A stretch of 64,000 nucleotides of DNA from an uncultured Planctomycetales bacterium (lineage in GTDB: Bacteria; Omnitrophota; Gorgyraeia; Zapsychrales; GWA2-47-8), in assembly GCA_964499685.1 (NCBI GenBank), contig CAZCLW010000001.1, forward strand, positions 28,278-92,277, read 5' to 3'. Made by a program: the position numbers and the translations under genes. Shown here one piece after another: positions 2 through 64,000 of this stretch. The notes below the pieces were generated by a model, which searched no databases, was not told the DNA's origin, and saw only the letters and a program-made list of their open reading frames with translations. Each line of letters begins with the position of its first letter. The first letter of the stretch is position 1.

Positions 2-3000
2 ACGGTCCTCGGGTACACCAATCCTTTGGTCCAAACGGTCAATTTCCACAATATTCCTTTAGCTCCTAACGAAACGCTGGTTCCTCAGAATGGGCATATT
101 TATCAGTTGGACCAGCCTTTGACCTCAGCGGCCGACCTCGACCGGATCGTGGCCAATCAAGCTCCGGTCAAAGTCGCCTTTGCCCACCGGAATGAAGCTA
201 CCGGCAAGATCGAACACAAGGTGGCCCCTGTCCATAATGGTAAATTTGTCCATACCGAAGCGCGCGCCGCGACCGTCAACGGCAGAAAGACACAGTTCAA
301 TATTGCCCACACTATGGTCGCGGACAAGAATAATGGTTTCCATGAACGTGAAGATTCCCGTTTAGCGGAGGATGTTGATTTCGGCGGAACAAAATTTGCC
401 AAAGGTACGATCCTGAAGAGTTCCATTCAACCCGGCGTTACATTGTTCGTCGACAAGGATAATCGTCAGCAGATCTTGGGCGCTTATCGCGGGGATCAAG
501 TCTATACTCCCGATGCCGAAAATCGTATCATCTTCTCTGATAAGATTCAGATCGATGGACAAAAAGGTTCATTCGGCCTGCAAAGAGAATATCTGGCGGC
601 CGGTAAAGACCTCATTCTGACAAAGGCCGGGTTCTTGAAAGACCAGCAGCCGGTCATGATCAACGGTCAGTCCATCAATGACCTGCCGATGGACAGCGAA
701 GGTGCCTTCCGTAACGCGCAGGGCGAAATCGTTGCTGTGTATAAAGAAGACAAGAACGAGAAAAATGAAGATATCAAAAAAGTATATGCTGTTAACGACC
801 GACGCTATTTGGCGGAAGAAGAAACAGTCAAGATCATGAGTCCTGCCGATCCCAAGAGAGAGATTAAAGTCAAGGCCCGTCCAAATCTTTACGTTTATGA
901 TCGCGAGAATTCCTCTGCGCCCTATATTGTCTCGGAAGATGTTAAAGAGGCCGGTGTAAAGGCCGGTGATGAGATTTTCCTGAGCCAAACGTATGATGTC
1001 CGGGTTGTGCGCAGCAAGGAAAATGGAAGCTTAAAAGGGTTTATCGGCAAAGATAACCGTTTCCACACTTTTGCCACTGATGAAGATCAATTCATCATTC
1101 CTCCGCCGAAGCACAGCGCAGATGGTTTCCAGACGGCTTCCAAAAAGGAAATCCAGCAAGAAATGGTCTATCAGGATGCGTTGGCGCTTCAGCGTAATTT
1201 AATGGTCGGCAATAGGATATTTGCCAGCGAGGGGAAGGCCGAAGAAAAAGAACGCGAAATTACCGCCTTGCATCAAAAGGTCGAACAACTGACCCGGGAG
1301 TTGGGCGGAAATTGGCAGTTCGAGCGGCAAGGCACATCCTTGTCCATGACCTTACAGTCTACTCCTGAGGAAGTTGCTCAGTTGGCAAAGGAAAGCCAGG
1401 CGTTTGCCAGATTCGTTCTGCGTATACAGGACAAGAGCCAATATACAGATGAACCTATCCGTATTTTATTTGATCCCATGCTCCAGGCGGAATCAGGCAA
1501 TGGGAGACCGGGCGAGGTCGCCGGCAGCAAGTATTGGAAGATGGGAACGGATGCCTTTATAAGCACGGCCTTCGGTTATGCGACAACGCACGGTACGGGT
1601 ATCGGTAGAGAACATGAATACTATCATTTGGCCGACAATATTTCACCTTTGACCGGGAATGTCCGCTGGGGCGCGACCACAATTGTCAGCAACGGTTCCC
1701 GTTTGCTGCCTATTAATTTAGGTATTTACAACGGAGAGCGGAAAGGATTATTGATCGCGCTCGGCGAAATCGGTGCCCATGTACGCGAAGCCAAGGGGAA
1801 ACTCAAAACAATGCTGCAGGCCAAAGAAAAAGGCAATACGGCCCGTTTTGAAGAATATAGACGGCGTTCTCTGGAGCCGTTGACCCGTGCCCGCAATATC
1901 GCTTTTGCCAGCGAAAAGGCTCTTACAGTGACCCTGGCTTCTTTAGAGACAGGTACAGCCCAAGTTGAAATCGTTCCTGATCAGCATAACTCTGCCATCA
2001 AGGTCGCCCAAATTTTATCCAAAACGCCTAGCGGTGAAGTGCTCCCCATATCTCAGCCGCTGCCTGTCGGAGAAGAAGGTTATCTGACGGAAAACAACGG
2101 ACGGACTGAGCTCAGCGAGCGCGGGAAAGAATGGGTCCACAAACAATTGACCGTCGCTAAAAACAAGGCTGTAAGGCAGGGACTTTATGCGGAAATCATG
2201 CTCAGCTCAGCCAAGAACCATGCTAAGGACTTTGCCCTGCTCGAAGTTGCCGCCCGCACCTCTTTACCTCGTGCTTTGACATTGCTCAAAGAGGCGCAGG
2301 CCAATGGTGAAGGTAATTTCTCTGATATTGAAACAACCGCTCAAAATGGCCTGCGCTTGATCGCTGAGGCCGTAAGCACTTCGAATGTTGAATTAAGTCC
2401 GGATGGAAAGAAGCGCACGCATTTTAATCCGTTGACCGGCCGCGGTTTTGTCATGGATGTTAAAACGAAACAGATCGAAAAATTCATTTCGAAGGGCGAA
2501 GGAAGATTGGCTTCTTCGGATATTCTGGATCAAAGGACAAAATACAATATCGACGCTGAGATCGAATCAGCCCGTACAGGAAAACCGCTTTCTATCCAGG
2601 GGAATCTGGTCTATGCCAACGATGCGGACAGACAAGCCAATAAGCCGAATATTTTACGCCGCACAGAAGTGGTGGACACAAAAGAAAACGGTGAAGAAAT
2701 CGAAGCCGAAGTCGATTATCAGATCCATTATGAAAACGATCGCAATCCTTATATCGTCCTGAGGGACCAAGAAGATGTCCGGCAAATACGGGAGCTTAAT
2801 ATAGAGGAAGGAACTTTCGGCGAAAAGAGATTCCTTGTGGCCAAGAATGATGACCGGTATGGCCTGAAGGCGGGAGATGAAATTGTCTCTGCCGGCAATA
2901 TCGCCCTCTTCCGTAACGGTATAGGCGGAGAGATTAAGGCGGCTGAAATACCCGGAAAAGGAGTCCGGCCTGTGGTCGATGGCCGGTTGAGCTTTGGGTT

Positions 3001-6000
3001 GGAAGATATTAACATTCCTCTGTCTGACGGAAAGTCGGTACCCGTTCCTAATGAGATGGTGTTTAGTATCGATCCGCAAACCGGTGAGCCCGGAACTTTA
3101 TTTACGCGTTTAATGCCTCAAGCGCCGCTATCGGTTGCCGGCGGCGAATTGGTTATTGAGTCCGGAGACCGGCTGTATGAAGAAATGGGAGTTGTGACCA
3201 GTGCGCAAGGAGAAATCAAAGGATTTGTTCAAGGATCGGAGTGGAAAGCCGAAATGGCACGCCGCGAGATCAGCGGTCCACAGGATATTGTAAGCCGCGA
3301 CATGGAGTCTCCACTTGAGATATCAAAGGTTAAGGGCCGGAATATTTATCATGTTGAGTTTGCGGATATACGTGCTCAGAATCGCGCTTTTGGCCGTGTG
3401 ACGCTTTTTGCGGAATCCAAAGAGCATAAAGGACAGGTAGCGGAAATGTCGGCAGTGTCGGAGTTTGCTATGATCGGCCATGATCTGACCGTCGGTGATA
3501 TGGTGGAGTTCTACAATAGCGCAGAGCAAGGCGGTATAGAGCTTGATATGGCCGAGCAAGTGGTCCGGACCGCTATGATCAAAGAGGGTCTTATCGCCAA
3601 AGAAAATGGACGGTTCGTGACAAAGTCAGATGCGGCCGTCCTTGCCGTTGCCCGCGATGATTCTCGAAGGCTGATACAAGATAATGATCACCGCGCCGAT
3701 CTGGTCGGGCATGAATTTAATCACGGATTGTATTTCACAGATGCCAACTTTAAACAAGGGGTTGAGCAAGTATGGCAAATGCTTGCGCCGCGGGAACAGA
3801 AAGCGGTCAAGGATTTCTTAGTTTCCCAGGATATGTATGATGGAGAAGATGAGGCTTTAGTCATAAGAGAATTTGCCGGTTGGTTCAGGAGTTTGCGGTC
3901 GGTTGACCGCATGGCCGACGGAAAGATATCTGCCTTGCATGATCCCGAGATCAGAAAAACATTTGAGGATGTGGAAGGCATGCTGTTAAGTTTGGAAAAA
4001 GATGTAATGGCCATGACCGCAGAGCCCACCCAGCTTGCCAAACCCGGCCAGACCGGCAGCATTGATATTCCGGACCAGAAAAACGCCGCCATGTTGGGCA
4101 GTGTCGAAGGACAGATCCGTGCGCCGCCGGTTATCGGGACATTGCCGGTTCCTTTTGTTCCTCCCGCACCTGTTCTTCCTCCGGCTATCGGCCTGTTATC
4201 CGCCAGACAGCCGGATTCAGTTGAACTCAGCCAAGAAGCCCTTTTAGCCTCATCGGTCAGCGGCATTTTAGCCCAGCCGCCAAAAAAGACATCTGAAATC
4301 CCGGAAAGACCCGAATTCGTCCGGCGCGTTGAACCTGCTTCCGGCTCATCCGCGGCCAACGATCAACGACAGCGCGGATTTGATCAGCAAAGATCGAATC
4401 CGGCGATGCTGGCCTTGGTGCAGTCCGAACCGCTGTTCGTCGCTCCGTTAGCCAATGCCACGCCTCAGCAGGAGATCGACCGGGCGGCCCGTGTTGTCCG
4501 CAGCGCTGACGATAAAACTTTAACCACGTTATTCACGATTGCCGGTATACCGCCGCAGGAATCCCGGGATTTGATCAATGATATCAAGATCGCCCGCGCG
4601 GAAAACCGGAACGTTACTTTTGATCAACTGCCGCAAGCCCTGCAGGAGCCGCAGGTCATCCAGGTCCTCGCCCGTGGGCCTTTGGAAACGATGCCGATTG
4701 CGAATGAGGATGAACGATTTGAATTCGGGGATGATGCTTCTTTATTATTGACGCGTCACGGACCGTATCTTGAGCTGCAGCCGCACGCTCCGAAACAGGG
4801 ATTAGGAAAATTAATGTATGCCTTCGCGGCCCATAGGGCCCAAGAAAAGGGCCTGCAGTTGCGTTCCGGATTGATCGGTACCGAAGCCTTATCCGCCGAT
4901 GACAAAGCCCGCTGGGAAAACATGGTCGCTGCCGGCCAAGCTGAGATCGTCAACAACCATTATGTGGCCAGACCGGATATAGACATTGTTTTGGCGGGAA
5001 TGGATACAAGAGAATTTTATGATACAAACGCCGCGATGCTCGCTTCTTCCCGGCGTGCTATTCGTCCAACGCAGTCCAATGCCGTTGTCGCGGAAAAACT
5101 GGAGCAATGGGTCGCTGCCCATGATCAAGAACTCCGGCCCATGGCCCGCTTCATCGCCGATAATATCACCCATATTTCGCAAGAGGATTTTGAGAGTGCT
5201 CTGGGTGAATCGGTCGATCAGTTCAACCAGGCGACCCAGGATGAGCCTTATGTGGTCCTTCTGCCGCCCGGCAATAAAAGCAACACCTGGGTCTATCAGC
5301 TTGCGAGAGAAAATAATTTACGCGAACCCGTTGCCGTCCATGTTGTCGGATCCGACTGGCAAGCCGCCCATCCGGACGTAAAGAACGTTGTCCTTATCGA
5401 TGATGCCGCGTATTCCGGCACAAGCACCGTAGGTTCATTATCACGATCAGGCCTCATGGATCCCGATCTTAGCGATGTGAAGGTCCATGTCATTACGCCT
5501 TTCATGACCGATTGGGCCTTGGACCGCGCACAAACCGCCAGAGCCAATGTCAATGTGTACCGGAGCGGCCGTATCAAGACCGTTGACGACATTTTAAGTG
5601 AAGATGAGATAGCCAATGCCGATGGCATCCGTTCAAAGATCCTGAGCCTGAGCGGCGCCACGCCCGGAGAGCTCAGCCGCCAGACGCTGACTTATTTTGA
5701 TCATACGATAGGGGATTCTTTATCGACCCTGTCCTTGAACGGCCACAGCATTTTTGACGGAGCGGTCGTGGATAAATTCGGTTCCAAACAGACCGCTGTT
5801 CCTTTTGTCGAGAAAACAGTCCAGCCTTATCGACAAGGGGCCAACCAAGCGATGCTGTCCTTGCGCTCGATGGACAGCCCGATCTTGTCCAGCCGCAGAG
5901 CTCATCGTTACGCCCAAGCCGTCCAGATGGAACCGTGGAATTGGGAACCGGTCGTTGACAGCATAAGCGAAACCCGGGCCGGGCGGATGTTCGAAAGGGC

Positions 6001-9000
6001 TAAGGATTCTTTAAGAGGCGGTAATTTCCTCAGAGCCAGATTGCAGTTCAACATGGCCAGAATGATGGCGGAAAAGAGCGAACCGCAGCTGGCTGAACGC
6101 GCCAAAGGATTCGCGGACACTATCCGTCGCAGGGATTCAAAGGATCCTCAAACCGAGAGCGCACGTCTCTTGGGATATGAACCGACCGTTTATGATGTTG
6201 CCGATCTTGTTTTAAGCGTAAGACCGGAATTGGCGGTCAAAGTGCTCGAAGAAGATCAGGGGACATTCACTCCGCAGCAATTTGCGGCGACAAGAGATTT
6301 TCTCTTCTCTATTATGCAGCAGCAGGATGAAGAAAGCATCAAACCGCGGTTCGGGCTTGATCATCCGACCCCTGATCCACGCCACATACCGGCTTATGTG
6401 AGCATCTTTATGGCCCAGGTGAGGGATTCCGAAAAGATAGATCCTGAGATCAAACAGCAGGCCTTGGAAGCTTTGGCCGCCATGCCGGAGATCACGCCGC
6501 AATGGTATGCCAAGCACGTTCGCATGGATGCCGAAGTCGAGGAAAGAATGCGCACAGGGCATCGGCCGCTTCTGGCCGCCGGCCGTGGCGTGCCGCAATT
6601 GGCAGGCACTTCCGAACAACCGGCCCGGCCGCCGATTGTTGAAAAGCCGGTCACGGCCTCAGAAAGAGCCGCCGTTACGCAGACAATGTATGACCTGGAA
6701 GACGGCATCAAACAGGTTTCCGATCAAGACAGAGACAGATTATTGATGCAGATGGCTGCCTCTATCGGTCCTGTCAAGGACGAAGAGCCTTCCATCAAAG
6801 AAATGCTGGCCCTGCGCACCATTGCTAAAGTCGCGGAAGGCAAAGATGTCAAACGTCTTTTGCGTGAAGCAAGACAGAACAGTAATGTCGATACTTCTAC
6901 GGTCACGGATGAAAAGATCGAGTGGGTCGCGCAAAGGATCAGCGATGAATTCGGCCCGACATACTCTGTCTGGGGTGCTCCGACGATGATCCAGCAAGCC
7001 CGTAATCAGTTAGGTTTGCCGGACCTTACCAAAATGATTCTTCTTGAGGGCAGGGAAGCGCCTTCTATCGCCGGTAACGCCGCGATGCTGGCTTCAGCCC
7101 GTCAAGCAACGAAAGAACGACTGGTCCGGCTGCAGCAGACCCTGACGAGCGGTGCAAAAGCAGGGCTCGAGTTTGAAGATCGATTGCTTGAAAGCAGCAC
7201 TGGGGATATCACGCCGCCGGCGCATTTGGTCCGCAGGCCTGACGGTTTATATGTGCATATGCACTTGAATGTTCCGGGTGAGGACGGCAACCAAGCTATT
7301 TCTCACGGCATGTTCTTTAAGGTAGAAAAATTATCGCCTGAAGGTGTGGTCTTAAGCGATCCGTTGATGGATGCTTCCGGCGATTTCAATGCTCCGCAGA
7401 TTGTCCGTTTGGAAGATTTCCCTGAATATCAGAAAGAGATCGGCGATGTTGTCCAAGCCGCCGCTCAAACAGTGGGAGGGCGCCTAACTGAGCTCACGCC
7501 TCATTTGCAGAATAACGGCCGCATCTCTTATTTCATGTCGGGCGATGACCTCATGCAAGTCTCCAAAGCCATTCCGCAAAATCTTTCCAAAGGCGCTTTC
7601 TTGACTCCCGACGGAGAGATCAAAGTCGTCGATTTGCCGGCCGGTACGGCGGATGTTCCGTCCATGTTCGGCATCTCGGTCAAAGCGAGCCCCTCGGTTG
7701 ATCAAAACGACGGCCAAAATCGTATGACGATAAACCTGCAGCGTAATGATCCGCAAAAGCCTGAAATGATCTTTTCGAGAGATGTCATTGCGGAAGAACC
7801 GGTCTCGGAGCAGGAAGCCGCTTATGCCGTCTCCATAGCTTTGATGGAATCCATGGCGGAAGAAAAAGAATTACTGGATACAAACACAGCCTATGTCATT
7901 CCGCAATACAGGATCCGCGAAGCCCGTCAGCAGATCGCCTTGGCCACATCCAATGCCGCCATGCTCAGCTGGACGGACCGCAAGGTCAATAACATGGCGG
8001 AAGTGCGTAACACTTTGGCCAAGTCCACGGATCTTTTGGGATTTGAAGCGAATGTTGCGCCGTCTTTGGAGTATCAACAGGCCGTTAATGACCTTATTGA
8101 GTTTTTGAATGAGCAAGGCGTCACACCTCAACGTCTGGAACAAAAATATAAAGAATGGCATGGGCTCCTGGGCGGAACAAAAATCACCGACGCCGGCGAG
8201 TATCAAGAAGATTTTAAGGGCCAGCATCTACAAATTTTTGAGCGGTTGGTCAAAGGTGACCTTAGTCAAAAAATAGACAGTGATCCCGTAGGTGTGGCCG
8301 CGGAAGTTATCGCGGACCTGGTTTACTGGCAGCCTTTCGTGGACGGCAACAGCCGTACCGCTGGTTTACTGGCCAATTATGTCCTGATCAAGGCCGGTCA
8401 CAGGCCGTTTATCCTTGATGAACAAAATATGTCGGTCTACGAGGATATTGTCCGGCTTGAGAGCTTCGGCAGCCTTCGCGGGGAAAAATTGCAGCAGTTC
8501 AAGCAGGCAAAACTCAGGGAATTTCTGGATGAGCAGTTCATTTCTCGTCAGGTCGCCCATCGCGGTTACAGCGTGATCCGTAACGGCGAGAACGGGGGAG
8601 GACAATGGGAGGTCATGCGCGCGCCTGTCAGCATTATCCGCGATCCCGAGGTCCAGCGTTTAATTGAGACAGAATATTTCTCAGAAGATACGGATAGAAT
8701 AGCGGGCGGCGCACTCTTTAGTCCTTCCATTGATGAAGCCAAGGCCCGCGAGATCTTTGGGCAATATAAGGCTTTGCTCGATCACATGTGGAAAACAGGC
8801 AATATCCAGGATGTGACGGTCGATAAATTATTCTTATCGCCGGACGGAAGGGTTTATTATCCCAACTTGGTCACACGCCTTAAGACGGATGTCCACAACC
8901 AGGCCGATCTTTATCCTGCCGTTTTCACGGCGGCTATTCGCAACAAAAACCGGGAGCTTTTAGCGAAAGTTCCGGCATCGGTCCGCCAAGCTTTTGAAAG

Positions 9001-57000: not shown

Positions 57001-60000
57001 CGCCAAGACCGAGCTGGCGGGTAAAACCACGCATTTACAGGAATTGAGCCAAAGCATGGTCGTCAACGGAAAAGTTGTCCGCGGTCTGGAGAAGGGCCTT
57101 GTCCGCATCGCTGAGCAAAGCGCGCCATTTACCGTAAGGATCAAAGGTGTCGGTTATAACCGCCTGCATGGTGATATCTATCTGGAACTGGAAGCGACCA
57201 GCGAAATCGTTGAAGAAGACGGGCAAAAAATCCCGGCCTTGCAGAGCCGGCAGAAGGGATTGCAGCAGCTGCCTATCGAAATAAATCCTGTCCATGCCAG
57301 CATTCCTCTTCACGTTTCTCTCGGGAAAGTGACCGAACCTATGGATGAACAGCAATCGCGCGATATCGAACAATTAAGCCAGTTAGTGACCGAAGCGCAA
57401 TTGCCTGAGTTCCATGTCGGCCGGATAGCGGTCATTTTCTACGGTCACCGTCTGCACCGGAGCATTATCCATCAGCATGATCTGCTTTTAGGTCAGGAAA
57501 ACGGTGCTTTCGCCCTGGAAGATTTTATCGCCAAGGCGGATAAAGCTTATCGTCTTGAACCGGAAGAAAAAGACGCAGAGGCCCCGGCCGTCCGCGAAGG
57601 ATTATTGGAGGGCAATGAAAAGATCGAGAAATTGATCAACTCCATTGTGTACCGTTGGCAGGAGATCGTTGAACGCGGGGCGTTCGTCTTCGACGTGGAC
57701 GGCACCTTATTGCCCAAGGGTAAAACACTGCGTGCCTTTACACAATTGGCCAATCTGCTCGTTGAATTGCTGCGGGCCAATGTCAGGATCGCCATTATCT
57801 CCGGCAACGCGGAGGCGGCCCAAAGGGAAAATATCGTCCAGCCATTAATGGAAAAATTAGGCCCGAACAAACATCTCTTGCAAGGTTTGACCATGTACGT
57901 CAACGGCGGGGCCACCAAGATCGGCTTCAACGAAGAAGGAGAAGAGTTCTACAACCTTGAGTACAACCGCCGCCATGTGATGGAATCGGCCGATCTGGCT
58001 TACTTTATCACGGTTTTAAGGGAGATGGCGCTGCGCGGGTTCAATTTAAACGACCAAGAACAGACGGAAGTGTTTGAGGCCTGGAAGTCGTTCGCTTCAA
58101 CGGATGAGTACCGTAATATCCAGTTCGATTTCAGCTGGATGACCGGCAATGCGGATTGGACGCCGAGCATTATTTCCGCCGAAGACCTGTTGAAGATGAA
58201 ACGCGAAGGCGGTTCCATAACCTGGCCGTGGGTGGAGCTCAGAGGTCAATTCGAAGAAGGGAAAATGGCCAGCTTTACGATCCGGCCTCTTTTAAGGACG
58301 CCGCATGATGTCCGGCCGGCTGTCATTGCCGCCGTCACCGACAAATTAAAGGAAAAAGCCTCTCAATACGGCATCCGTCTGGCAGGGTTATCTTCCATCG
58401 ACGTCACGCAATTAAGGGCCAATAAGGTCCAAGCCTTGACCGACTTTATTTCTGCTCAAAACCTGGATGGCGCTAGGACATTCTATTTTGGCGATGAATT
58501 CTTCCATCAAGTGATCGAAGGCTTCGAGAATGTTATCGATGAAGGTAACGATGAGCCCATCGCCCGGGATAAAGCGCTACGCAAGAAAGGCGTGGTCACC
58601 TTAAGTGTGTATGCCCATGAACAAAGCGGCTCAAAGGCCAGCTTATGGATCGGCCGCGGCCCGAAAGCGGTTACGGAATTTTTGGGCAAGGTCGTTAAGC
58701 GCCTTGAAACCCTGCCGCGCGAAAACAATGTCCAAGAGAAAATTATTTTCGAACATACGTTCATCCTGGAACCGCGGCACTTTATTGATTCCTCCGAAAG
58801 GGCCATGTTAAGAAAATCGATCAAGAGCATGATCAAAATAGAATGGTCGCGCGCGCCGCATGCGGATGATGTAGCCTCGGCCGAGGCGCTTATCCAGAAT
58901 GTGATCAGATCAAGACAAGATGTGTACCGTCAGGAGTATGCCTCGATGCCCGGGGATGAATTCTTCCGTGAATCAACGCTCGGCAAAAGCTTTGATTTTG
59001 CTTTGGAAGAGATCCTCAAGAACGCCTTCGATGCCTATGTGGCCAAGAATGCCATCGGCCCGATTCTTATACAGGTTAAAGAACAAGGCCATGCTTATGT
59101 CATCGAAGTCTCAGAAGACGGTATCGGTATCGAGTTCAGTTTGACCCGGCATGATCCTGAAAACGGCTGGCAGATCATCCGGCGGACCGGCAACGGCAAA
59201 TCACTGGCGGTCCGGGAAGGCGGCGACGGAATGGGATCACTGTGGGCGGAACTGTTAATGGAAGTCTACGGCGGATCGCTCGATTATGTGCCGGCCACCC
59301 GTCCCGGATTTGTCACCACCGCCCGGATGACCTTACCGAAGGATGCCATAACGGTCACTGTCCTTCCCAATCACATCCGCAAGGAAGCGGCCGGACAAAA
59401 TCATCCGGCGGCGAAGAATGCCAAGCGGTTGAAATTCGGGACCAGCGGCCTAAGAGGGCTGGTGGCTGAACTGACTGACATGGAAGTCTACATTAACGTT
59501 AAAGGTTTCTTGTATTATCTGATCGCCGGTAACCGCATTCAATTCGGTGATACCGTGGCGCTTGGTGAGGACTTGCGTAAGAGTTCGCCTGATATCGCCC
59601 GTGCGGTCGCCAAGGCCATGCAAGACAGCCTGATGCAGGTCATGAATGCCGGACAAGTGCCTTCCCCGGCCCTGGCCCATTATGCTCTGACCCACGCTGT
59701 GGCCGGCATCATGGTGACCGGAAGCCACATCCCCGATGACCGTAACGGCATCAAGTTCATTAAACCTGACGGGGAAGTATTGAAAGAAGATGAAGCCGCC
59801 ATCTTGAAATGGGTTGAAACGATCCGCATCGAAGAATACGCCAAGACTCTTGGACAATCTTTATTTGATGAGAACGGCAAGTTCAAGGCTGTGCCGGAAA
59901 AAATCGCGGCTACGCCGGATGTCCGCCAAGCCTACATCGACCGCTATCTGAGCCTCTTGCCTCAGGATATCTTGAGCGGTAAAAAGGTCGTTGTTTATCA

Positions 60001-63000
60001 GCATTCTTCCGTGGGCCGTGACATTCTGGCCGAGGTCCTGGCCGGTTTGGGCGCTGAGGTCGTGCCCGTCGACCGCAGCGATGAATTTGTTGCCATCGAT
60101 ACAGAACATGTCACGGAAGAAGACCGTATCTATTTCGCCGATCTCGCCCGCCAGCACTCCGATGCCTTTGCCATAGTGTCCATGGACGGCGATGCAGACC
60201 GGCCGTTTGTGATCGATGAGGCCGGGACCTTCCACCGCGGGGACGTTCTGGGGATCATCGTCGCTGTTTATCTTAAGGCCAAGTTTGCCGCGCTTCCGGT
60301 CAGCTCCAATGATGCCGCTGAAGAAGAGCTCTCTAAATATGGTATTGCGCTCAAGAAGACCAGGATCGGCTCGCCTTTTGTCATCAAAGCCATGAACGAA
60401 GCTATCGCCGGCGGGAACAACCATGTGGTCAGCTGGGAAGTCAACGGCGGGTTCCTCACGGGTACGGATTTCGCGTTCGGTCAAGGTATCCTCAAAGCCC
60501 TTCCGACAAGGGATGCGGTCCTGCCTATCCTTACGGTCATGCTGGCCGCCATTGAACAAAGGCTTTCTCTGTCTCAATTGTTCGCCCGCTTGCCCGGTCG
60601 CTATACCCAGGCCGGCCTGCTGGATAACTTCCCGATGGAAACCTCCAAGCGTGTCATTGCCGCCCTTTCGCCGGTCACGGAAGTCCAAATCGAACAGATC
60701 GAGTTCAACATCAATCATATTACCGTCCAGCTGGCCGACGGCACGAGAAATATCGTCATGCCGAACGAACCGTTCAGTCATGAACTGTGGAAGATAGCGA
60801 CCTTGATCACGGAACACTTCAGCCCCAAACAAGGCTTTGGAAGGATCATCAGTATTAATTATATCGACGGCGTACGCATCACGTTTGACCATAGAGATAT
60901 TGTTCATTTCCGTCCCTCAGGCAATGCGCCGCAGTTCCGCATTTATGCGGTCAGCCAGTCGCAGGCGCGGGCCGATGAGATCGTCGCCTTAGGCCTGGCG
61001 GAACCGGACGGTATCCTGCGTAAATTCGAACAGGAATTTGCGTCAGCCTCTGCTGCGGTCGCTCCTTCGCCGGAAAAAGTGATCGTTGAGGAAAGATTGA
61101 CCTTCGCCGAAACGGATTTCGAGAATGCCATGTCCAGGACCGGCAAGCGGTATGACCTGCTCAAGAAACTCGGTTTAGCGTGGGGCCGCACGCCGGATCC
61201 GGCGCTTATCGAACAGGCCAAGCCATTGATAGACGATCTCGTTCGCCGCCGCTTACGATGGCATCAGGATGAAGGTATTTATGAGCTCTATGACGGCACG
61301 GCCATTACGGAAGAACATCTGCGTGAAGGCGTTGTTAACAATACACTGCACTTCGTTGCCGACGAAATATTAAAGAACGCCTTCGATGCCTATGTCCGGG
61401 CTAACGCGACCGGTCCGATCCTGTTCCGGATCATTGAAAAGGACGAAAAGGTCATTATCGAGATCTCCGATAACGGTATCGGCGTCGATTTCAAATATTC
61501 ACGCAAGGATCCGCGCGGCTTCTGGTCGGTCTATTCACAAGGCCGCAAAACCTCTGAGATATCGAAGGGCGAAGTGGAGGGCGGGTTAGGCATCGGTATC
61601 CATTGGAGCCAGGTCTTGGCCATGATCCATGGCGGAGGCATGGAATTCCTCGCCGATCAATATCCGGGATATAAGACAACGGTCCGGATAACCTTACCGC
61701 TCGGTGCCGTGCGCATCAATCAGAAATCGGAGCAAGATCCTAAAGGAAAGCCTCAAGGACCGGCCGATCCCGGTGCTACCACAACGCATTCCTTTGAACC
61801 GCATACAATCTTAGGTATGTTGGCCGGTTTCTTAGTGATCCGTAACGCTTATCCGGTCGTTGCTATTGCATTAGAGATCATTGCGGTTGGCATTCTTTCG
61901 GTCATCGCCTACCGCAAATGGGTTGCGCTCAAGCAAGCCTTAGCTAAACAGCAAACTCATATCATATTGGAAAATAACTTTAGGCCGTTGCGCAGCGATT
62001 CCAACCTACCGTGGCGGGTTGTTCGGGATCTTGCAAGCGCAGCGGCCTCTTTATTTAGGCTGTTGTCCAAAGGTTCTAACCTACCGTGGCGGGTTGTTAG
62101 GAATCTTAGTGAGCGATCACTGGCAACAGCCTTTAGCTTTGTTTGGCCGTCTAGGCCGCTGTCCGTCGGCACATTCCCAATCTCCCGTGGCGGGTTGAAA
62201 GGAATTCTTGCTGTGGCAGCGGCCTTACTTGTCACCGATTCGGTTTATGCGGGCAATAATACTCCGGCAGTTTTTGCGACGAACCTGTCTGTTAATGTGC
62301 TGATCGTTCTGGCCGTGTTAGCGGGTATCGGGACGGTTGTTTCCTTGATCATATTCCTGAAGGTCCGCCGGCTTACTGCCGATTCGCTGCTGAAGAGATT
62401 CCGGTTGGCGGTCAGAAAAACCGTGTGGCTCGGGCTTACGACCCTTTACTTCGGCGTCTTTACTTTCCTGGCCGTTAAGCTTCATTTCGCCGTCAATTCT
62501 CAGGATACGGTGAAGATCGCCGAAATACAGCCAATTGTTCCTGAACAAAAAGCCCCATCACTCGAGCAATATTTCCGTGAATACGCCCGGGCCGCTCAAG
62601 TTTATCTTGATCGTCCGACGTTCCGCGGCACACCGTTGACCGGCGCAATGCTCGCCGAGGGCGCCAAAAAAGCCTTCCTTAAGACAGGCATTATCGTTCC
62701 GGTCGAGTTGGCGTTGGCCCAGGCGCAGATAGAAAGCTCCATGGCGAGAGAAGGGCGCAACCCGGCCACAAATCCGTTCAATGTCGGCGAATTCGATGCC
62801 GGAACGCGTATCCGCTTTAGCGGCATTCAAGCCGGCGTCGATGTTTACTTTACTCTTATGACGGAAAATTATCTGAATGCCCGCGGCCTGGATGAATTAT
62901 TGCGTAACTTCGTCAACAAAGATGGTTACCGGTATGCCTCCAACCGGAATTACGAACGCATGCTCAGCGGACAGGTCCAGACCATCCGAAAATATATCAA

Positions 63001-64000
63001 GGCCCAGACCAGCACCGGCACGACTGTCCGCATGGTCGAGCCGCTTTCACTCATTGCCGGTCTAATTGCCCTGCGCAACATCCATCCGATCGTGAATATT
63101 GTTATCGATCTCCTTATCCTTTTAGCGATCGTTATGATGGTCCGGAATATCCGCAAGCTGGCCAAAGCTCGTCCGGCTGAACAAAAAGCCGGCGGCTACG
63201 CCGGCATGAGCCACGGTCAAGCCGAGCAGCAACTGGAAGCCTATCAGTCTTCGGGTATCCATATTGATTTAGCCGCCAGCAGCGATATCTTGTTTGGCTA
63301 CCAGTTGGCCTTGATCTACATGGGCAAGCGGAATAAATTGAACCAAAACCGCGCTCCGCCACTGGTCTTCATCGTTGAAAATCGACAAACAAGATTTGGG
63401 GCGGTGTTCATTGAGGAAGAAAACCACATTTATTTTGAGCGTTCCCTCTTTGTTCAATTAAGCACTTCTCCGGCAGCTCTGCGTAAATTTGCCCGCGTTT
63501 TTGTCTTTATCTTAAACAACCATCCGAGTCATCTTCATAATCGTTTGGTGGAATACCGTTACGTCGCCCAATTGATCATTGTCCCCGCTGTTCAGTGGGG
63601 CCGCAATATCAAGACTTGGCTGCTCAGTTACCGCAAGGTCTGGGTCAATCGCAACGTCATGGCAGGGGCAGGGCTTTTCAGCATTGAAGAACTCAAGGCG
63701 GCCAAGGCCATTATCGACCGGTATTTATCTCCGACACCGCTGATATATTCCCATAGCTTAAGCGAGATCATTGGAGCGAATGTTTGGCTTAAATTCAATA
63801 CGCGCCATAAATTGAACGGAACGACGATCGAAACGCATTCCTATAAGATCCGCGGTGTTCTCTATAAGATCCTTGAAGCCATACAAGGAAAGACCCCTGA
63901 GCAGATAGCACAGATATCGTTTGTGGCTGCTTCCGCCGGCAATCTTGCTGAAGCCGTGGCCGCTGCGGCCAAGCTCGTGGGCGCCAAGGGCGTGATCTAC
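2..64000 (+). CDS. Internal fragment of a giant multidomain protein gene, partial at both ends. 21,333 consecutive sense codons in phase 2, with no start or stop in the window.
   Basis: Manual codon-by-codon read of the frame starting at nt 2 found no TAA/TAG/TGA through nt 64000. The ORF track has no + strand ORF in this phase, and the other five frames are fragmented into ORFs under 350 aa. Codon bias is consistent along the frame, and many recognisable protein motifs are all in this one frame. Confidence 0.93.
4960..5640 (+). other. Repeated module copy 1, containing a phosphoribosyltransferase-like PRPP-loop motif (VVLIDDAAYSGTST, nt 5386-5430), preceded by a NAAML motif
   Basis: Translation ...FIADNITHISQEDFESALGESVDQFNQ...YVVLLPPGNKSNTWVYQLARENNLREPVAVHVV...VVLIDDAAYSGTSTVGS. 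Type I PRTase motif: hydrophobic stretch, acidic DD, then SGT. Confidence 0.4.
8100..8500 (+). other. Fic/Fido-like segment with a substituted core motif QPFVDGNSRTAG (nt 8330-8365). Canonical HxFx[DE]GNGRxxR with the catalytic His replaced by Gln.
   Basis: Translation ...VGVAAEVIADLVYWQPFVDGNSRTAGLLANYVLIKAGHRPF. Spacing and flanking hydrophobics match Fic motif geometry. Confidence 0.4.
9500..9620 (+). other. Minimal nucleotidyltransferase (pol-beta superfamily) motif GS-x-DxD: IGTGSVARDRAVTG...SDYDVRVVV
   Basis: hG[GS] followed about 20 residues later by DhDh, as in MNT-fold nucleotidyltransferases. Confidence 0.35.
9940..10420 (+). other. Repeated module copy 2, a diverged paralogue of 4960-5640, with PRTase-like motif IAIFDDASYSGTQT (nt 10262-10300)
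   Basis: ...ARFIADNIQHIPQQEFERKLQRSVAAFNEE...YVAVSETGKSNEWVYELAREQGLREPQAV...IAIFDDASYSGTQTAEIV aligns position by position with copy 1, at roughly 45-50% amino-acid identity by eye. Confidence 0.4.
11240..11420 (+). other. Second minimal nucleotidyltransferase motif: LKGSALWGVKGKKKEDIDLVVMV (nt 11262-11335)
   Basis: Classic GS...[DE]hDh signature of pol-beta-type nucleotidyltransferases. Confidence 0.4.
15830..17560 (+). other. SecA-like / SF2 DEAD-motor ATPase domain. Motif I IAQNAAGKTLAIFLTAL (15881-15905); ILTLDETF; motif II ILDEVDDALNREVTYIVS (16299-16350); motif III GVSATDAG (16928-16950); motif VI-like HAVNRNTRAEEDQGRK (17497-17545).
   Basis: Order and spacing are Walker A, about 135 aa, DEVD, about 210 aa, SAT, about 190 aa, arginine-rich motif VI. 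This mirrors the SecA layout NBD1-insert-NBD2. Compare SecA MKTGEGKTL...VHVVTVNDYLA...DEVDSILIDEARTPLIIS. Confidence 0.6.
20790..21180 (+). other. Pro-rich then Gly/Ser-rich flexible linker (PPLPEEDL...IQIPPAIMPPAVLPAPILNLG...GGTGGSGGGSGGSGGSDPGASPAGPSG)
   Basis: Low-complexity translation; GGSGG repeats at 21087-21140. Confidence 0.7.
21200..22440 (+). other. Ser/Thr/Ala/Val-rich low-complexity region with atypical, A/T-richer codon usage (gta, agt, aca, tca, gtt)
   Basis: Local codon preference visibly differs from the GCC/CCG/ATC-dominated remainder. Contains the short internal repeat ILGVRAEET / ILGVRGSEE (16-nt DNA repeat attctcggagtgcgcg, 192 nt apart). Confidence 0.5.
22440..23310 (+). 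other. Cluster of about four predicted transmembrane helices (LIAFIIAISVVLSLL; ILSTVAGIGARTVVMAGAVLFLAAPAFA; LIAASFLGLSTNTWLVVGGVLVAFGAILAAIKLF; VLITLLLALITGMFAGAM)
   Basis: Hydrophobic 18-30 residue stretches flanked by charged residues (RNLSDKKK). Confidence 0.6.
24840..25200 (+). other. M23 (LytM)-like segment lacking the Zn-ligand histidines: GYRYTVPENTPVYAPTTGIVVKA...NYVITIRT...AHLGALNIKVGDAVRQGNLIGVAAKEQTGTNSSYFY
   Basis: Matches the M23 pattern GTPV.A...G.V....NYV.I.H.....Y.HL....V..G..V..G..IG..G.TG, but lacks the HxxxD and HxH Zn ligands (no HLHFE). This resembles the variant LytM domains of EnvC/NlpD. Confidence 0.4.
32700..34560 (+). other. YD/RHS-like beta-repeat region (recurring G..xYxYD/G motifs: VYTYNGPFG, TYLYDATKPEG, TRYVFDGYKS, RLTYEGISG, RYHDGQQIV, TYEYVKGHEN, AEYHTGKLV)
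   Basis: Tyr/Asp/Gly-punctuated repeats of about 20 aa period, typical of YD-repeat shells; by eye only. Confidence 0.35.
35030..36450 (+). other. Transmembrane helix cluster (LLAPTIVVIVSAFAIFTITIPLLLLAVTALISRVF; ILVVSVVIGAVGLLTYIKLTFAMSLIPFVGLALTVALLGWQII; FAAWVGTSALLAVVSFYYAAGAMPFWILTIFGGITFAFNTVVAL)
   Basis: Long hydrophobic stretches in the translated frame. Confidence 0.6.
38290..39560 (+). other. Transmembrane helix clusters (38290-38790 and 39170-39560) separated by a Lys/Glu-rich charged, AT-richer segment (38790-39170: KKEGKKKAEGENKKKKTE...)
   Basis: Hydrophobic stretches IIFLFAFFVSFTPFAYLAFPAFFIGL, WGVILLAIVVFAPFHPVGVAAQLFFYVLPFAFIFGPFLANGLGIV, FILTPMLGVLATGFTGIVALTAIGKVTIAVGVIVVIGIVMAIVSSIL. 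The charged region shows a local codon and composition shift. Confidence 0.6.
40690..41800 (+). other. ROK/ASKHA-family sugar-kinase-like domain, copy 1 (GIDVGASDVKV; VVVGLLNDGDAGAVSVAG; LSLGTGLAGGYV)
   Basis: Phosphate-1 loop hhGIDhG..., the ND(A/G)NAAA catalytic-Asp motif and the GTGhGGG adenosine motif, in the order typical of ROK/glucokinase/GlcNAc kinases. No CxCGxxGC zinc motif. Confidence 0.6.
42390..43390 (+). other. Sugar-1-phosphate nucleotidyltransferase-like domain (MILAGGDGKRNYPIT, nt 42404-42450) followed by a left-handed beta-helix / hexapeptide-repeat region (43080-43340), copy 1. The arrangement is GlmU/MurU-like.
   Basis: ILAGGxGxRhxPhT signature, followed by ...NKGLVSSLNGEPNIYQAIKQ. 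The C-terminal VIVSADVRLGKAVKIENGAIILGKGSIEAGLIEKGAVVINTTAKEV... shows hexad periodicity. Confidence 0.6.
43901..43915 (+). other. HExxH zincin-like motif (LLAERLFHELGHTNN) inside unit B; also at 48038-48052 in copy 2
   Basis: Short motif only; no downstream third ligand identified. Confidence 0.2.
44400..45560 (+). other. YvcK/CofD (UPF0052)-like domain, copy 1 (VVVVIGGNGSLS; ITDNGGRTGEQ; LGDQ; ADAIIFGPGSLYSSILSQLTVPGLAVAV...KIWFFNHVNMEETSNYTFMDYVNAIERVL)
   Basis: Matches the family hallmarks GGGxG, DDGGSSGRL, PPGDhRN and ADhIVhGPGSLYTSIhPNLLVPGI...NLMTQPGET..YT..DH in the correct order. Confidence 0.65.
46383..47620 (+). other. Spacer between the two exact repeat copies. The N-terminal part is a diverged copy of 39880-40280 (RRLPGEKM...TTYPAYNNL...). 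A Nudix-like segment with substituted box residues follows at about 47000-47190 (AFVVAPDGKVVFQRRAHHKRAAPWQISIYGGHVKAGHSYEHTILHEELPEELEI).
   Basis: Side-by-side comparison of the translations. Nudix box GX5EX7REUXEEXGU is only approximately satisfied (HEELPEELEI). Confidence 0.35.
47621..50519 (+). repeat. Copy 2 of the 2,899-bp exact direct repeat (unit B), including the YvcK/CofD-like domain copy 2 at about 48537-49697
   Basis: See copy 1. Confidence 0.85.
50950..52060 (+). other. ROK/ASKHA sugar-kinase-like domain, copy 2 (diverged paralogue of 40690-41800; GIDVGASDVKV; VVVGVLNDGDAGAISVAG; LSLGTGLAGGYV)
   Basis: Aligns with copy 1 throughout, at roughly 60-70% amino-acid identity by eye. 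Confidence 0.6.
52660..53690 (+). other. Sugar-1-phosphate nucleotidyltransferase-like (MVLAGGDGKRNYPIT, 52675-52725) plus left-handed beta-helix region, copy 2
   Basis: Diverged paralogue of 42390-43390. Confidence 0.6.
54340..55960 (+). other. Third YvcK/CofD (UPF0052)-like domain (LSFGGGSGMLVILKALK; SIDDGGSTYKL; SIGDLVNAL; ITFGPGSPFTSTLIHLLVSDVPEAL)
   Basis: Best match of the three to the family signatures GGGTGLSxLLRGLK, DDGGSSGRLR, PPGDIRN, GPGSLYTSILPNLLVPGI. Confidence 0.7.
57670..58620 (+). other. HAD-superfamily phosphatase-like domain (motif I FVFDVDGTLL at 57685-57712; motif IV-like YFGDEF at 58484-58500), probably with a cap domain in between
   Basis: DxDGT nucleophile motif with both aspartates present; a distal GDxx acidic motif about 265 aa downstream. 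Confidence 0.55.
58960..59350 (+). other. GHKL / histidine-kinase-like ATPase (HATPase_c) domain 1 (N-box EEILKNAFDA; G1 SEDGIGI; G2 GGDGMGSLWAELLMEVYGGSL; ...ARMTLP)
   Basis: Bergerat-fold motifs in canonical order. Confidence 0.55.
59420..60990 (+). other. Alpha-D-phosphohexomutase (PGM/PMM/GlmM-like) domain with all four signature loops: KFGTSGLRG (59434-59457), TGSHIPDDRNGIK (59717-59755), DGDADR (60185-60202), HFRPSGNAPQFRIY (60904-60945)
   Basis: The loops appear in the canonical order of the four PGM/PMM subdomains: N-terminal GxSGhRG, the phosphoserine loop TASHNP (here TGSHIP, Ser retained), the metal loop DGDGDR, and the sugar-phosphate loop (G)RPSGTEP..R.Y. Confidence 0.75.
61340..61700 (+). 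other. GHKL / HATPase_c-like domain 2 (DEILKNAFDA; SDNGIGV; GGLGIGIHWSQVLAMIHGGGMEF; ...VRITLP), paralogous to domain 1
   Basis: Same motif set as 58960-59350. The two flank the phosphohexomutase domain. Confidence 0.55.
61790..63150 (+). other. Transmembrane helix cluster (ILGMLAGFLVIRNAYPVVAIALEIIAVGILSVIAY; VNVLIVLAVLAGIGTVVSLIIFL; VWLGLTTLYFGVFTFLAV; LIAGLIALRNIHPIVNIVIDLLILLAIVMMV)
   Basis: Hydrophobic stretches in frame. Confidence 0.6.
61999..62110 (+). repeat. Short direct repeat: ttc(c/t)aacctaccgtggcgggttgtt(c/a)gg(g/a)atctt, two copies 75 nt apart, encoding SNLPWRVVR(D/N)L. A partial third copy ccgtggcgggttg lies at 62185.
   Basis: Direct base comparison. Confidence 0.7.
63700..64000 (+). 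other. N-terminal part of a PLP-dependent fold-type-II (tryptophan-synthase-beta-like) domain, truncated by the window end: TPL...LKFNTRHKLNGTTIETHSYKIRGVLYKILEA...ISFVAASAGNLAEAVAAAAKLVGAKGVIY
   Basis: Matches T.L......V.LK.E..NPTGSFK.RG (PLP-binding Lys) followed by V.AASSGNHG.A.A.AA..G of threonine dehydratase / cysteine synthase / threonine synthase. Only about 100 aa are visible. Confidence 0.5.

Follow-up and report, generated by a model that had tools for sequence, protein, structure and literature searches.

The 64,000 nucleotides (nt) of contig CAZCLW010000001.1 analyzed here (assembly GCA_964499685.1, positions 28,278 to 92,277; in the following called the window) are occupied by one uninterrupted open reading frame (ORF), and its translation of 21,333 amino acids (aa) does not contain a single cysteine. 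Very likely, the window is an inner part of a single, genuine giant gene (>21,333 aa) of an Omnitrophota-like bacterium. The gene product would be a multi-enzyme protein of the Archaeovorin/multi-enzyme class, anchored in the membrane and probably extracytoplasmic for the most part. The giant genes of Omnitrophota represent an open problem, and one more sequence-unique member is of modest value alone. What this member contributes is a cysteine-free signature, a conserved motif at the module junctions and an exact in-frame repeat.

A single coding frame spans the window

nt 2-64000, + strand: single ORF of 21,333 codons with zero cysteines in its product (stop count, codon-usage likelihood)

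In this frame none of the stop codons TAA, TAG and TGA occurs over 21,333 codons, while the remaining five frames contain 494-1,272 stops each and their longest stop-free run comprises 351 codons. If stops were as frequent as in the alternative frame with the fewest of them, the probability of finding none would be ~1e-217. Furthermore, a leave-one-out codon-usage likelihood was used as coding test, in which all six frames were compared in 71 segments of 900 nt. Frame +2 ranked best of the six in 71/71 segments with a smallest margin of 0.18 nat/codon, which shows that the coding signal is continuous and not patchy. The GC content at codon positions 1/2/3 of this frame is 0.57/0.38/0.60. Scans of the window for tRNA and Rfam families revealed no embedded RNA, and antisense ORFs above 348 aa are not present.

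The original prediction, which had described phase 2 as free of stops, the other frames as broken up and the codon bias as coherent, is borne out by these counts. It had also regarded the window as a fragment of a giant gene, in agreement with one coding frame that carries in-frame domains and transmembrane (TM) segments along its whole length. The further statement that the gene is longer than the window holds as well: neither the start nor the stop codon of the giant frame lies inside, and a PALP domain is severed by the window end, so that the gene has to run on past it.

Domains and membrane segments of the product

Pfam domains are detected in ~11% of the residues, leaving ~89% without a match, and the matches span aa 1701 to the final residue of the window. 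They represent 10 distinct domain types (13 Pfam families, E<=1e-3), none of which occurs in more than two copies. Recognizable in-frame domains are therefore present as originally predicted, whereas the "dozens" of motifs mentioned there were an overstatement. Besides the CofD/YvcK-like modules described with the internal duplications, the following domains were found:

nt 5102-5560, + strand: PRTase-CE copy 1, aa 1701-1853 (module aa 1681-1947), with the phosphoribosyl pyrophosphate (PRPP)-loop-like sequence VLIDDAAYSG (Pfam, E 1.2e-15)
nt 8258-8479, + strand: Fic-like domain, aa 2753-2826, with degenerate active site (Pfam, E 2.2e-6; FICD in the PDB sequence search, E 1e-5)
nt 9866-10768, + strand: PRTase-CE paralog copy 2, aa ~3289-3589, 35% identical to copy 1 (sequence comparison)
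nt 24872-25108, + strand: peptidase M23 (LytM)-like domain, aa 8291-8369 (Pfam, E 5e-9)
nt 47006-47398, + strand: NUDIX domain, its Nudix box degenerate-looking by eye (Pfam, E 1e-5)
nt 57683-58498, + strand: HAD-like hydrolase, Hydrolase_3 (Pfam, E 1.8e-4)
nt 59000-59344, + strand: HATPase_c copy 1 (Pfam)
nt 59423-60991, + strand: complete PGM/PMM, domains I-IV, aa 19808-20330, zero cysteines (Pfam)
nt 61343-61702, + strand: HATPase_c copy 2, 33% identical to copy 1 (Pfam)
nt 63722-64000, + strand: PALP (PLP-dependent enzyme), N-terminal part ending at the window edge (E 3.3e-12, profile positions 4-84 of 295)

For PRTase-CE copy 1, an alignment-based AlphaFold (AF2) model of aa 1660-1965 reached a mean pLDDT of 90.4 with a folded core at ~aa 1687-1944, whereas a single-sequence AF2 prediction of aa 1636-2040 gave a pLDDT of 40 and was unusable. 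Foldseek matched the alignment-based model to XGPRT/UPRT/HGXPRT, and the predicted fold matches that of a type-I phosphoribosyltransferase.

The state of the catalytic residues differs between the domains. In the Fic-like domain the active-site motif reads QPFVDGNSRTAG where HxFx[D/E]GNGRxxR is expected (H->Q), and the catalytic histidine is thus replaced. Judged by eye, the zinc-ligand motifs (HxxxD / HxH) of the M23-like domain are apparently lost. The PGM/PMM motifs TGSH, DGDADR and RPSGNAPQ, which represent the phosphoserine, metal and phosphate-binding loops, are intact. As far as such motifs can tell, the giant protein may mix active enzymes (PGM/PMM) with pseudo-enzymes that only bind (Fic, M23, NUDIX).

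PDB sequence searches and NCBIfam returned nothing beyond the FICD and M23 matches. At E<=0.01, no Pfam match to a glycosyltransferase, a methyltransferase or a glycosyl hydrolase was obtained in the 21,333 aa. SecA_DEAD/preprotein-binding, C39/S8 peptidase and HEAT/TPR domains have no Pfam match in the window and could lie in the unseen parts of the gene. Likewise, no Pfam match in the window was obtained for dockerin, TSP3, NHL and WD-type repeats or for C80 and RTX, and TRF detected only three trivial 2-copy arrays.

Membrane segments were called by a hydropathy scan (KD thresholds), in which 18 hydrophobic segments were found at KD>=1.8 and 30 at KD>=1.5, together ~1.7-2% of the residues. 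They fall into three clusters:

nt 22448-23290, + strand: hydrophobic/TM cluster 1, ~4-5 segments, aa 7483-7763 (hydropathy scan)
nt 35069-39535, + strand: hydrophobic/TM cluster 2, ~10 segments, aa 11690-13178 (hydropathy scan)
nt 61817-63142, + strand: hydrophobic/TM cluster 3, ~4-5 segments, aa 20606-21047 (hydropathy scan)

Two of these clusters hold an internal signal-peptide-like segment with an A-x-A-type end, namely ...AVLFLAAPAFA/QAQ in cluster 1 (~nt 22990-23070, aa 7665-7690) and ...AAALLVTDSVYA/GNN in cluster 3 (~nt 62200-62280, aa 20733-20760). In the TM-rich stretch at nt 34001-40000 the GC content drops to 44-49% compared to 52% overall, and frame +2 is still preferred by the codon-usage likelihood. 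Such a drop fits the AT-rich codons of hydrophobic residues better than a foreign origin.

Relatives and lineage

The only long collinear homolog of the window is P0002 (MDO8580684.1), a 1,959-aa fragment which fills a whole 5.9-kb contig of a Candidatus Omnitrophota metagenome-assembled genome (MAG).

nt 33239-39001, + strand: region collinear with P0002, including conserved TM helices, aa ~11080-13000 (31% identity over ~1,950 aa, E 1.7e-227)

When aa 1455-2654 were searched exhaustively by phmmer, 422 matches were obtained, headed by P0003 (MBF0522532.1; 4,003 aa, 1245 bits) and P0004 (MBF0522531.1; 3,535 aa, 605 bits), which are encoded side by side in a different Omnitrophota MAG. The remaining matches are mostly limited to the PRTase-CE module; the proteins concerned reach 7,727 aa in length, and several are annotated as Omnitrophota or Elusimicrobiota. 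The best homologs of the N-proximal module array (P0003, P0004 and P0007) are annotated as Candidatus Omnitrophota. The original likening of the frame to the giant proteins of Omnitrophota was apt, since both the long collinear homolog and the best multi-module homologs carry this annotation.

P0003 and P0004 share their architecture with two further proteins, P0022 and P0012. All four contain a signal peptide and conserved N- and C-terminal domains, while the modules between these domains are otherwise unrelated. The N-domain comprises ~380 aa (...LP.PG.MV..S..F.P..LKG.K..P.NPL...KYFSGG...) and the C-domain reads ...GGID.NP..M.LQ......GF.PVII.I.P.... Both bracket the variable cargo in a carrier-like manner, and by BLAST neither is present in the window.

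The PGM module finds its best matches (45-51%) in ordinary stand-alone enzymes, which come from many phyla, and is therefore uninformative with respect to lineage. Related PGM copies also sit inside other very long open frames, namely L028, L022 (an Omnitrophota MAG), L058 and L001/P0001 (5,568 aa). Closest in character to the window is L028 (CAZSAP010000028.1, 'uncultured bacterium binchicken_co269_236'), another giant-gene fragment, which is a locus of 15,071 nt with one open frame of 5,023 codons (2-15070) and two PGM/PMM copies, which are 46-47% identical to that of the window. L001 (JGI 3300009538, Ga0129287_10000390) contains a row of genes for large proteins (2-2392, 2954-19660, 19800-21170 and 21322-25773) with PFK, PGM, glucosamine-isomerase and phosphorylase domains. 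Here, signal-peptide-like N-termini are seen in three of the four proteins whose start lies in the locus. The complete C-termini (4/4) end alike (...LMAA*, ...DVAA*, ...ERAA*, ...LQSA*), and this shared tail may be a targeting or processing signal.

An exact probe of 50 nt, taken at the beginning of the window, found no copy in genome, metagenome and viral contig collections, and the window protein is absent from a collection of 5.8 billion protein clusters. In a word-based protein search, aa 1-5000 gave no match and aa 16334-21333 gave one, a PGM-containing protein of 5.6 thousand aa (kaa). Scans of metagenome and viral contigs based on the P0002 alignment gave no match either, where the metagenome scan used weak peptide patterns.

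Exclusion of cysteine

Cysteine is missing from all 21,333 residues of the frame +2 translation. Its codons TGT and TGC are absent in frame, compared to 986 and 478 occurrences in the other two + frames, and even at a cysteine frequency of 0.2% the probability of such a result is ~1e-18. The same avoidance is found in the relatives. P0002 contains no cysteine in 1,959 residues despite only 31% identity to the window and a different GC content, and the open frames of L028 and L058 contain 2 in 5,023 and 3 in 2,660 residues, respectively. For P0003 and P0004 together the count is 3/7,218 (0.04%), in comparison to 1.68% in eleven ordinary neighbor genes of the same contig; for P0022 it is 0.03% vs. 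1.25% in its neighbors. Stand-alone PGM homologs (n=74) have a median of 6 cysteines per copy and one of them has none, whereas the window copy and both L028 copies have zero. In homologs containing PRTase-CE, the median cysteine content falls from ~0.7% (<1,500 aa) to 0.23% (>=3,000 aa).

Since distant relatives are cysteine-poor while neighboring genes and stand-alone PGM enzymes are not, the absence of cysteine characterizes the whole family and is not due to chance. There is strong selection against cysteine in the window protein and its relatives. S-layer and type-I-secreted proteins are known to have a composition free of cysteine (PMC3034196, PMC5425405). Cysteine is not mentioned in the published accounts of Omnitrophota giant proteins considered here (West-Roberts et al., 2023, 10.1101/2023.11.21.568195; Nielsen and Lui, 2026, 10.64898/2026.06.07.730766; Seymour et al., 2023, PMC10066038), and the same is true of the in-frame repeat and of the junction motif described below.

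Taken together with the TM anchors, the internal signal-peptide-like segments and the M23-like domain, the avoidance of cysteine suggests that the bulk of the polypeptide is exported or surface-exposed. The product is thus probably a membrane-anchored protein with its bulk outside, acting at the cell surface or at the interface to a prey cell. This agrees with the proposals for Velamenicoccus archaeovorus, in which giant-protein peptides become more abundant when the cells are attached (Seymour et al., 2023).

A conserved motif at the module junctions

The N-proximal part of the frame displays an array of modules, separated by a short repeated motif.

nt 4082-15745, + strand: module array, aa 1361-5248, 11 modules of 105-950 aa and 12 junctions (motif count)

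The motif N-x-A-M-L-[A/S/G] starts at aa 1361, 1466, 1676, 1948, 2359, 2651, 3020, 3290, 3621, 4571, 4958 and 5243. These 12 copies, all within aa 1361-5248, compare to 0.17 expected from shuffling (maximum 2). Both PRTase-CE paralogs and the Fic-like domain belong to the modules of the array. The sequence D-V-M-A-M-T-A at aa 1333-1339, 22 aa ahead of the first junction, is a possible variant.

A related motif is found in the smaller proteins. In P0003 and P0004, practically all module boundaries carry D-x-A-M-[A/V/T]-T, with 13 and 11 sites, respectively, compared to ~0.1 expected for the strict pattern, and the D-x-A-M junction is also present in P0022 and P0012. The methionine is invariant in 36/36 junctions examined. 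The flanks of the motif are highly variable (~3.3 bits entropy), while positions -1, +4 and +5 from [D/N], which were not used for site selection, are occupied by small or aliphatic residues only. Since the codons of the motif vary synonymously among the junctions of the window, the constraint acts on the peptide. In the AlphaFold model, both junctions around PRTase-CE copy 1 fall in lower-confidence flanks outside the folded core.

Because [D/N]-x-A-M also marks the boundaries in related modular secreted proteins of Omnitrophota, the junction is possibly a site of processing. The most likely meaning of the motif is that of a site for proteolytic processing or recognition, although this assignment is tentative and somewhat less probable than not; vestigial or functional internal starts and a purely structural linker element are the alternatives. 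That the N-proximal array is indeed processed at the junctions into separate modules is a tentative proposal with a less than even chance.

Directly downstream of P0004/P0003, at 22299-25745 of the same locus (L083; GCA_015233405.1, JADFXT010000007.1), genes for an RsmB-like methyltransferase, an Rce1-like (CPBP) intramembrane protease and a secretin are located. These would be possible partners for processing and export, but the arrangement is not repeated beside P0022 or P0012. The Rce1-like protease, considered as the protease of the junction, is therefore not supported.

Internal duplications

The CofD/YvcK-like module is present twice within an exact repeat, which is flanked by older and diverged duplicates.

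nt 43484-46382, + strand: exact repeat copy 1, 2,899 bp, CofD/YvcK-like module (Pfam CofD at nt 44975-45580; 100% identity, 0 gaps)
nt 47621-50519, + strand: exact repeat copy 2 (Pfam CofD at nt 48563-49714, E 1.4e-51; 100% identity)
nt 40341-43449, + strand: older duplicate Y, 69% nt identity to Y' (self-comparison)
nt 50604-53724, + strand: older duplicate Y' (self-comparison)

The copies of the exact repeat are offset by 4,137 nt, which corresponds to 1,379 codons, and the repeat is hence in frame. A further older pair is found at nt 39881-40247 and nt 46391-46757 (68% identity). The position of the exact repeat among older diverged duplicates points to repeated segmental duplication within the gene, the identity of the two copies indicating that the latest event is very recent or that gene conversion has taken place.

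Comparison with published giant-protein classes

Surveys of Omnitrophota, which are tiny predatory or symbiotic bacteria, have listed 46 genes >90 kb with ORFs of up to 85,804 aa (West-Roberts et al., 2023) and 5,761 proteins >=10 kaa, the longest of which has 147,155 aa (Nielsen and Lui, 2026). A protein of 21 kaa is thus mid-range for this phylum. The original prediction had called genes of this size extremely rare and confined to a handful of lineages, a view which is outdated, as the catalogued Omnitrophota proteins >=10,000 aa now number in the thousands. Of these long proteins, 94% contain TM segments or a signal peptide, with ~2% of the residues in TM segments and a median of 16 helices (Nielsen and Lui, 2026). 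The TM density of the window (~1.7-2%) agrees with this value.

Archaeovorin giants, with the 39,678-aa protein of V. archaeovorus LiM as type, contain many TM helices and NUDIX, peptidase, PGM/PMM-type, glycosyltransferase, methyltransferase and glycosyl hydrolase domains, as well as divergent SecA DEAD/preprotein-binding domains and an N-terminal C39 or S8 peptidase (West-Roberts et al., 2023; Seymour et al., 2023). The window shares the ORF of tens of kb, the numerous TM helices, the mostly unannotated sequence with scattered NUDIX, peptidase and PGM/PMM domains and the homologs in Omnitrophota. In contrast, and compared by published description, glycosyltransferase, methyltransferase, HEAT/TPR, SecA_DEAD and C39/S8 domains were not detected in the fragment. 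Furthermore, the window carries Fic-like, PRTase-CE, CofD and PALP modules that are missing from the set listed by West-Roberts et al. (2023), where neither an absence of cysteine nor a junction motif is reported.

The multi-enzyme metabolic cluster class of Omnitrophota (Gorgyraeia) is rich in HATPase_c, HAD, PGM/PMM and NUDIX domains and overwhelmingly sequence-unique (Nielsen and Lui, 2026). This is similar to the window, in which many Pfam families are present and none dominates, the same four domain types occur, TM residues amount to ~2% and close homologs are few. A difference is the exact internal repeat of 2.9 kb, as recent identical repeats are uncommon in Omnitrophota long proteins (Nielsen and Lui, 2026). 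Since the published descriptions fit well, the window was placed in the Archaeovorin/multi-enzyme metabolic cluster class; its protein is a sequence-unique addition to an already documented phenomenon of Omnitrophota.

The smaller proteins P0003, P0004, P0022 and P0012 resemble the window in that PRTase-CE and other modules are separated by [D/N]-x-A-M and in their near-total avoidance of cysteine. Unlike the window, they are stand-alone proteins of 2.8-4 kaa with an N-terminal signal peptide and conserved N- and C-terminal domains, whereas the window array is embedded in a far larger, TM-anchored ORF. The motif itself differs as well (N-x-A-M-L-[ASG] vs. D-x-A-M-[ATV]-T), and at BLAST level PRTase-CE is the sole module homologous between the window and the P0003/P0004 family.

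In MARTX toxins, arrays of effectors are freed by autoprocessing after a leucine that precedes A, S or G. The window array looks alike insofar as unrelated modules are strung between short repeated sites and the leucine always precedes A, S or G. However, RTX-type repeats, a C80 domain and homology to MARTX are missing, so that the likeness would be one of organization only, and a cysteine protease (CPD/C80) is not encodable in a window without cysteine. With S-layer and type-I-secreted RTX proteins the window shares the cysteine-free, acidic and probably surface-exposed character (PMC3034196; PMC5425405), whereas RTX nonapeptide repeats, S-layer domains and homology are absent and the product is TM-anchored as far as can be told. 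Finally, the window is not of the kind of dockerin-type or tandem-repeat scaffold giants, the repeats of which were not detected.

Alternative explanations

An assembly artefact would mean that a chimera or an over-expanded repeat hides a shorter or split gene, and that the 2,899-bp repeat was made or homogenized by the assembler or by polishing. The exact repeat is the one place where this is conceivable, as its copies are identical over the full length with abrupt edges while the adjacent paralogous segments reach ~69%, and an independent copy of the sequence is lacking in the contig collections searched. On the contrary, the frame is open and the codon usage uniform in all 71 segments, both repeat junctions included, and the offset of the repeat is divisible by 3, whereas a random mis-join breaks the frame in two of three cases and soon meets stops. 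In addition, the stretch between the copies is unique coding sequence, and the older diverged duplicates nearby mark duplication as a genuine habit of this gene. Deleting one copy would still leave >20,000 open codons, so that the main conclusion stands, and an artefact is judged very improbable. Practically negligible is the idea of several genes read through under an altered genetic code: the unusual length alone speaks for it, yet a reassigned stop would remain in frame, and reassignment is excluded by the absence of all three stop codons. The junction methionines could in turn be functional internal starts or scars of gene boundaries, with the array representing formerly or currently separately translated genes without stops. 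This would fit to the invariance of the methionine, to two junctions of P0004 in which it directly precedes a signal-peptide-like segment as at a normal N-terminus, and to L001, where enzyme domains of these kinds are encoded by large genes of their own. Nevertheless, a sequence resembling a Shine-Dalgarno site lies upstream of only 1/12 junctions in the window and none is consistent in P0003; [D/N]-x-A is as conserved as the methionine, although a start codon needs no such residues; and neither stops nor intergenic spacers of the L001 type (25-152 nt) separate the modules. Internal starts are therefore considered unlikely.

With respect to localization, the main rival is a mainly cytoplasmic, membrane-tethered metabolon, which would channel sugar-phosphate and nucleotide metabolism as a scaffold on the inner side of the membrane and avoid cysteine for economy or for the redox robustness of an abundant long protein. 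PGM/PMM, CofD/YvcK, NUDIX, HAD, PRTase, HATPase_c and PALP domains use cytoplasmic-type substrates, the catalytic motifs of PGM are intact, and 46% of the Omnitrophota long proteins are predicted to have TM segments only, with their bulk on the cytoplasmic side (Nielsen and Lui, 2026). However, the cytoplasmic stand-alone PGM homologs, with their median of 6 cysteines, demonstrate that this fold tolerates cysteine in the cytoplasm, and a cysteine-free composition is recognized in surface and secreted proteins. Moreover, the nearest modular relatives P0003, P0004 and P0022 begin with signal peptides, and the window itself contains internal signal-peptide-like segments and an M23/LytM-like domain. 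A cytoplasmic metabolon thus appears less plausible than an exported protein and is given a minor, though not trivial, probability.

Several points weigh against a giant, exported Omnitrophota protein with a processed array. Outside the cell, PRPP, ATP and sugar phosphates would not be available to the enzymes that depend on them as substrates. The topology was derived from a crude hydropathy scan alone, and the Fic, M23 and NUDIX domains look catalytically degenerate. The hallmark SecA_DEAD, C39/S8, glycosyltransferase and HEAT/TPR domains are undetected in the fragment. Phylogenetic marker genes do not occur in the window, and the assignment to Omnitrophota, a likely one judged from sequence similarity, stands on three or four homologs. 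For the junctions, no cutting protease was found, as the Rce1-like gene adjoins P0003 and not P0022 or P0012, and the lower pLDDT predicted there may simply reflect a shallow alignment.

A possible role of the giant protein

Within the favored reading of an exported giant protein, the three TM clusters would anchor a polypeptide in which enzyme-type modules are scattered through unannotated sequence. At the cell surface or the predator-prey interface it could act as a scaffold bearing sugar-phosphate and nucleotide-handling modules, as has been proposed for V. archaeovorus. The N-proximal array (aa 1361-5248) would then supply cargo modules and the [D/N]-x-A-M junction a site of proteolytic processing or recognition, so that part of the giant protein might behave as a polyprotein releasing single modules. 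In its most far-reaching form, which is speculative and rather unlikely to hold in full, part of the ORF would be a secreted cysteine-free polyprotein. The [D/N]-x-A-M junction would then be the cleavage or recognition site that has long been sought, where enzyme modules, among them PRTase and the Fic-like one, are cut out of giant and modular proteins of Omnitrophota at the interface of predator and prey, and the exclusion of cysteine would be a requirement of the export route.

As a compositional signature, the exclusion of cysteine could help to recognize, bin and classify proteins of this type; it also constrains where they are located and by which mechanism they are exported. The junction motif represents a candidate processing site, which is common to the window and to smaller secreted proteins of Omnitrophota. 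If the [D/N]-x-A-M reading is true, it would give the site where the giant and modular proteins of this phylum become individual enzyme modules.

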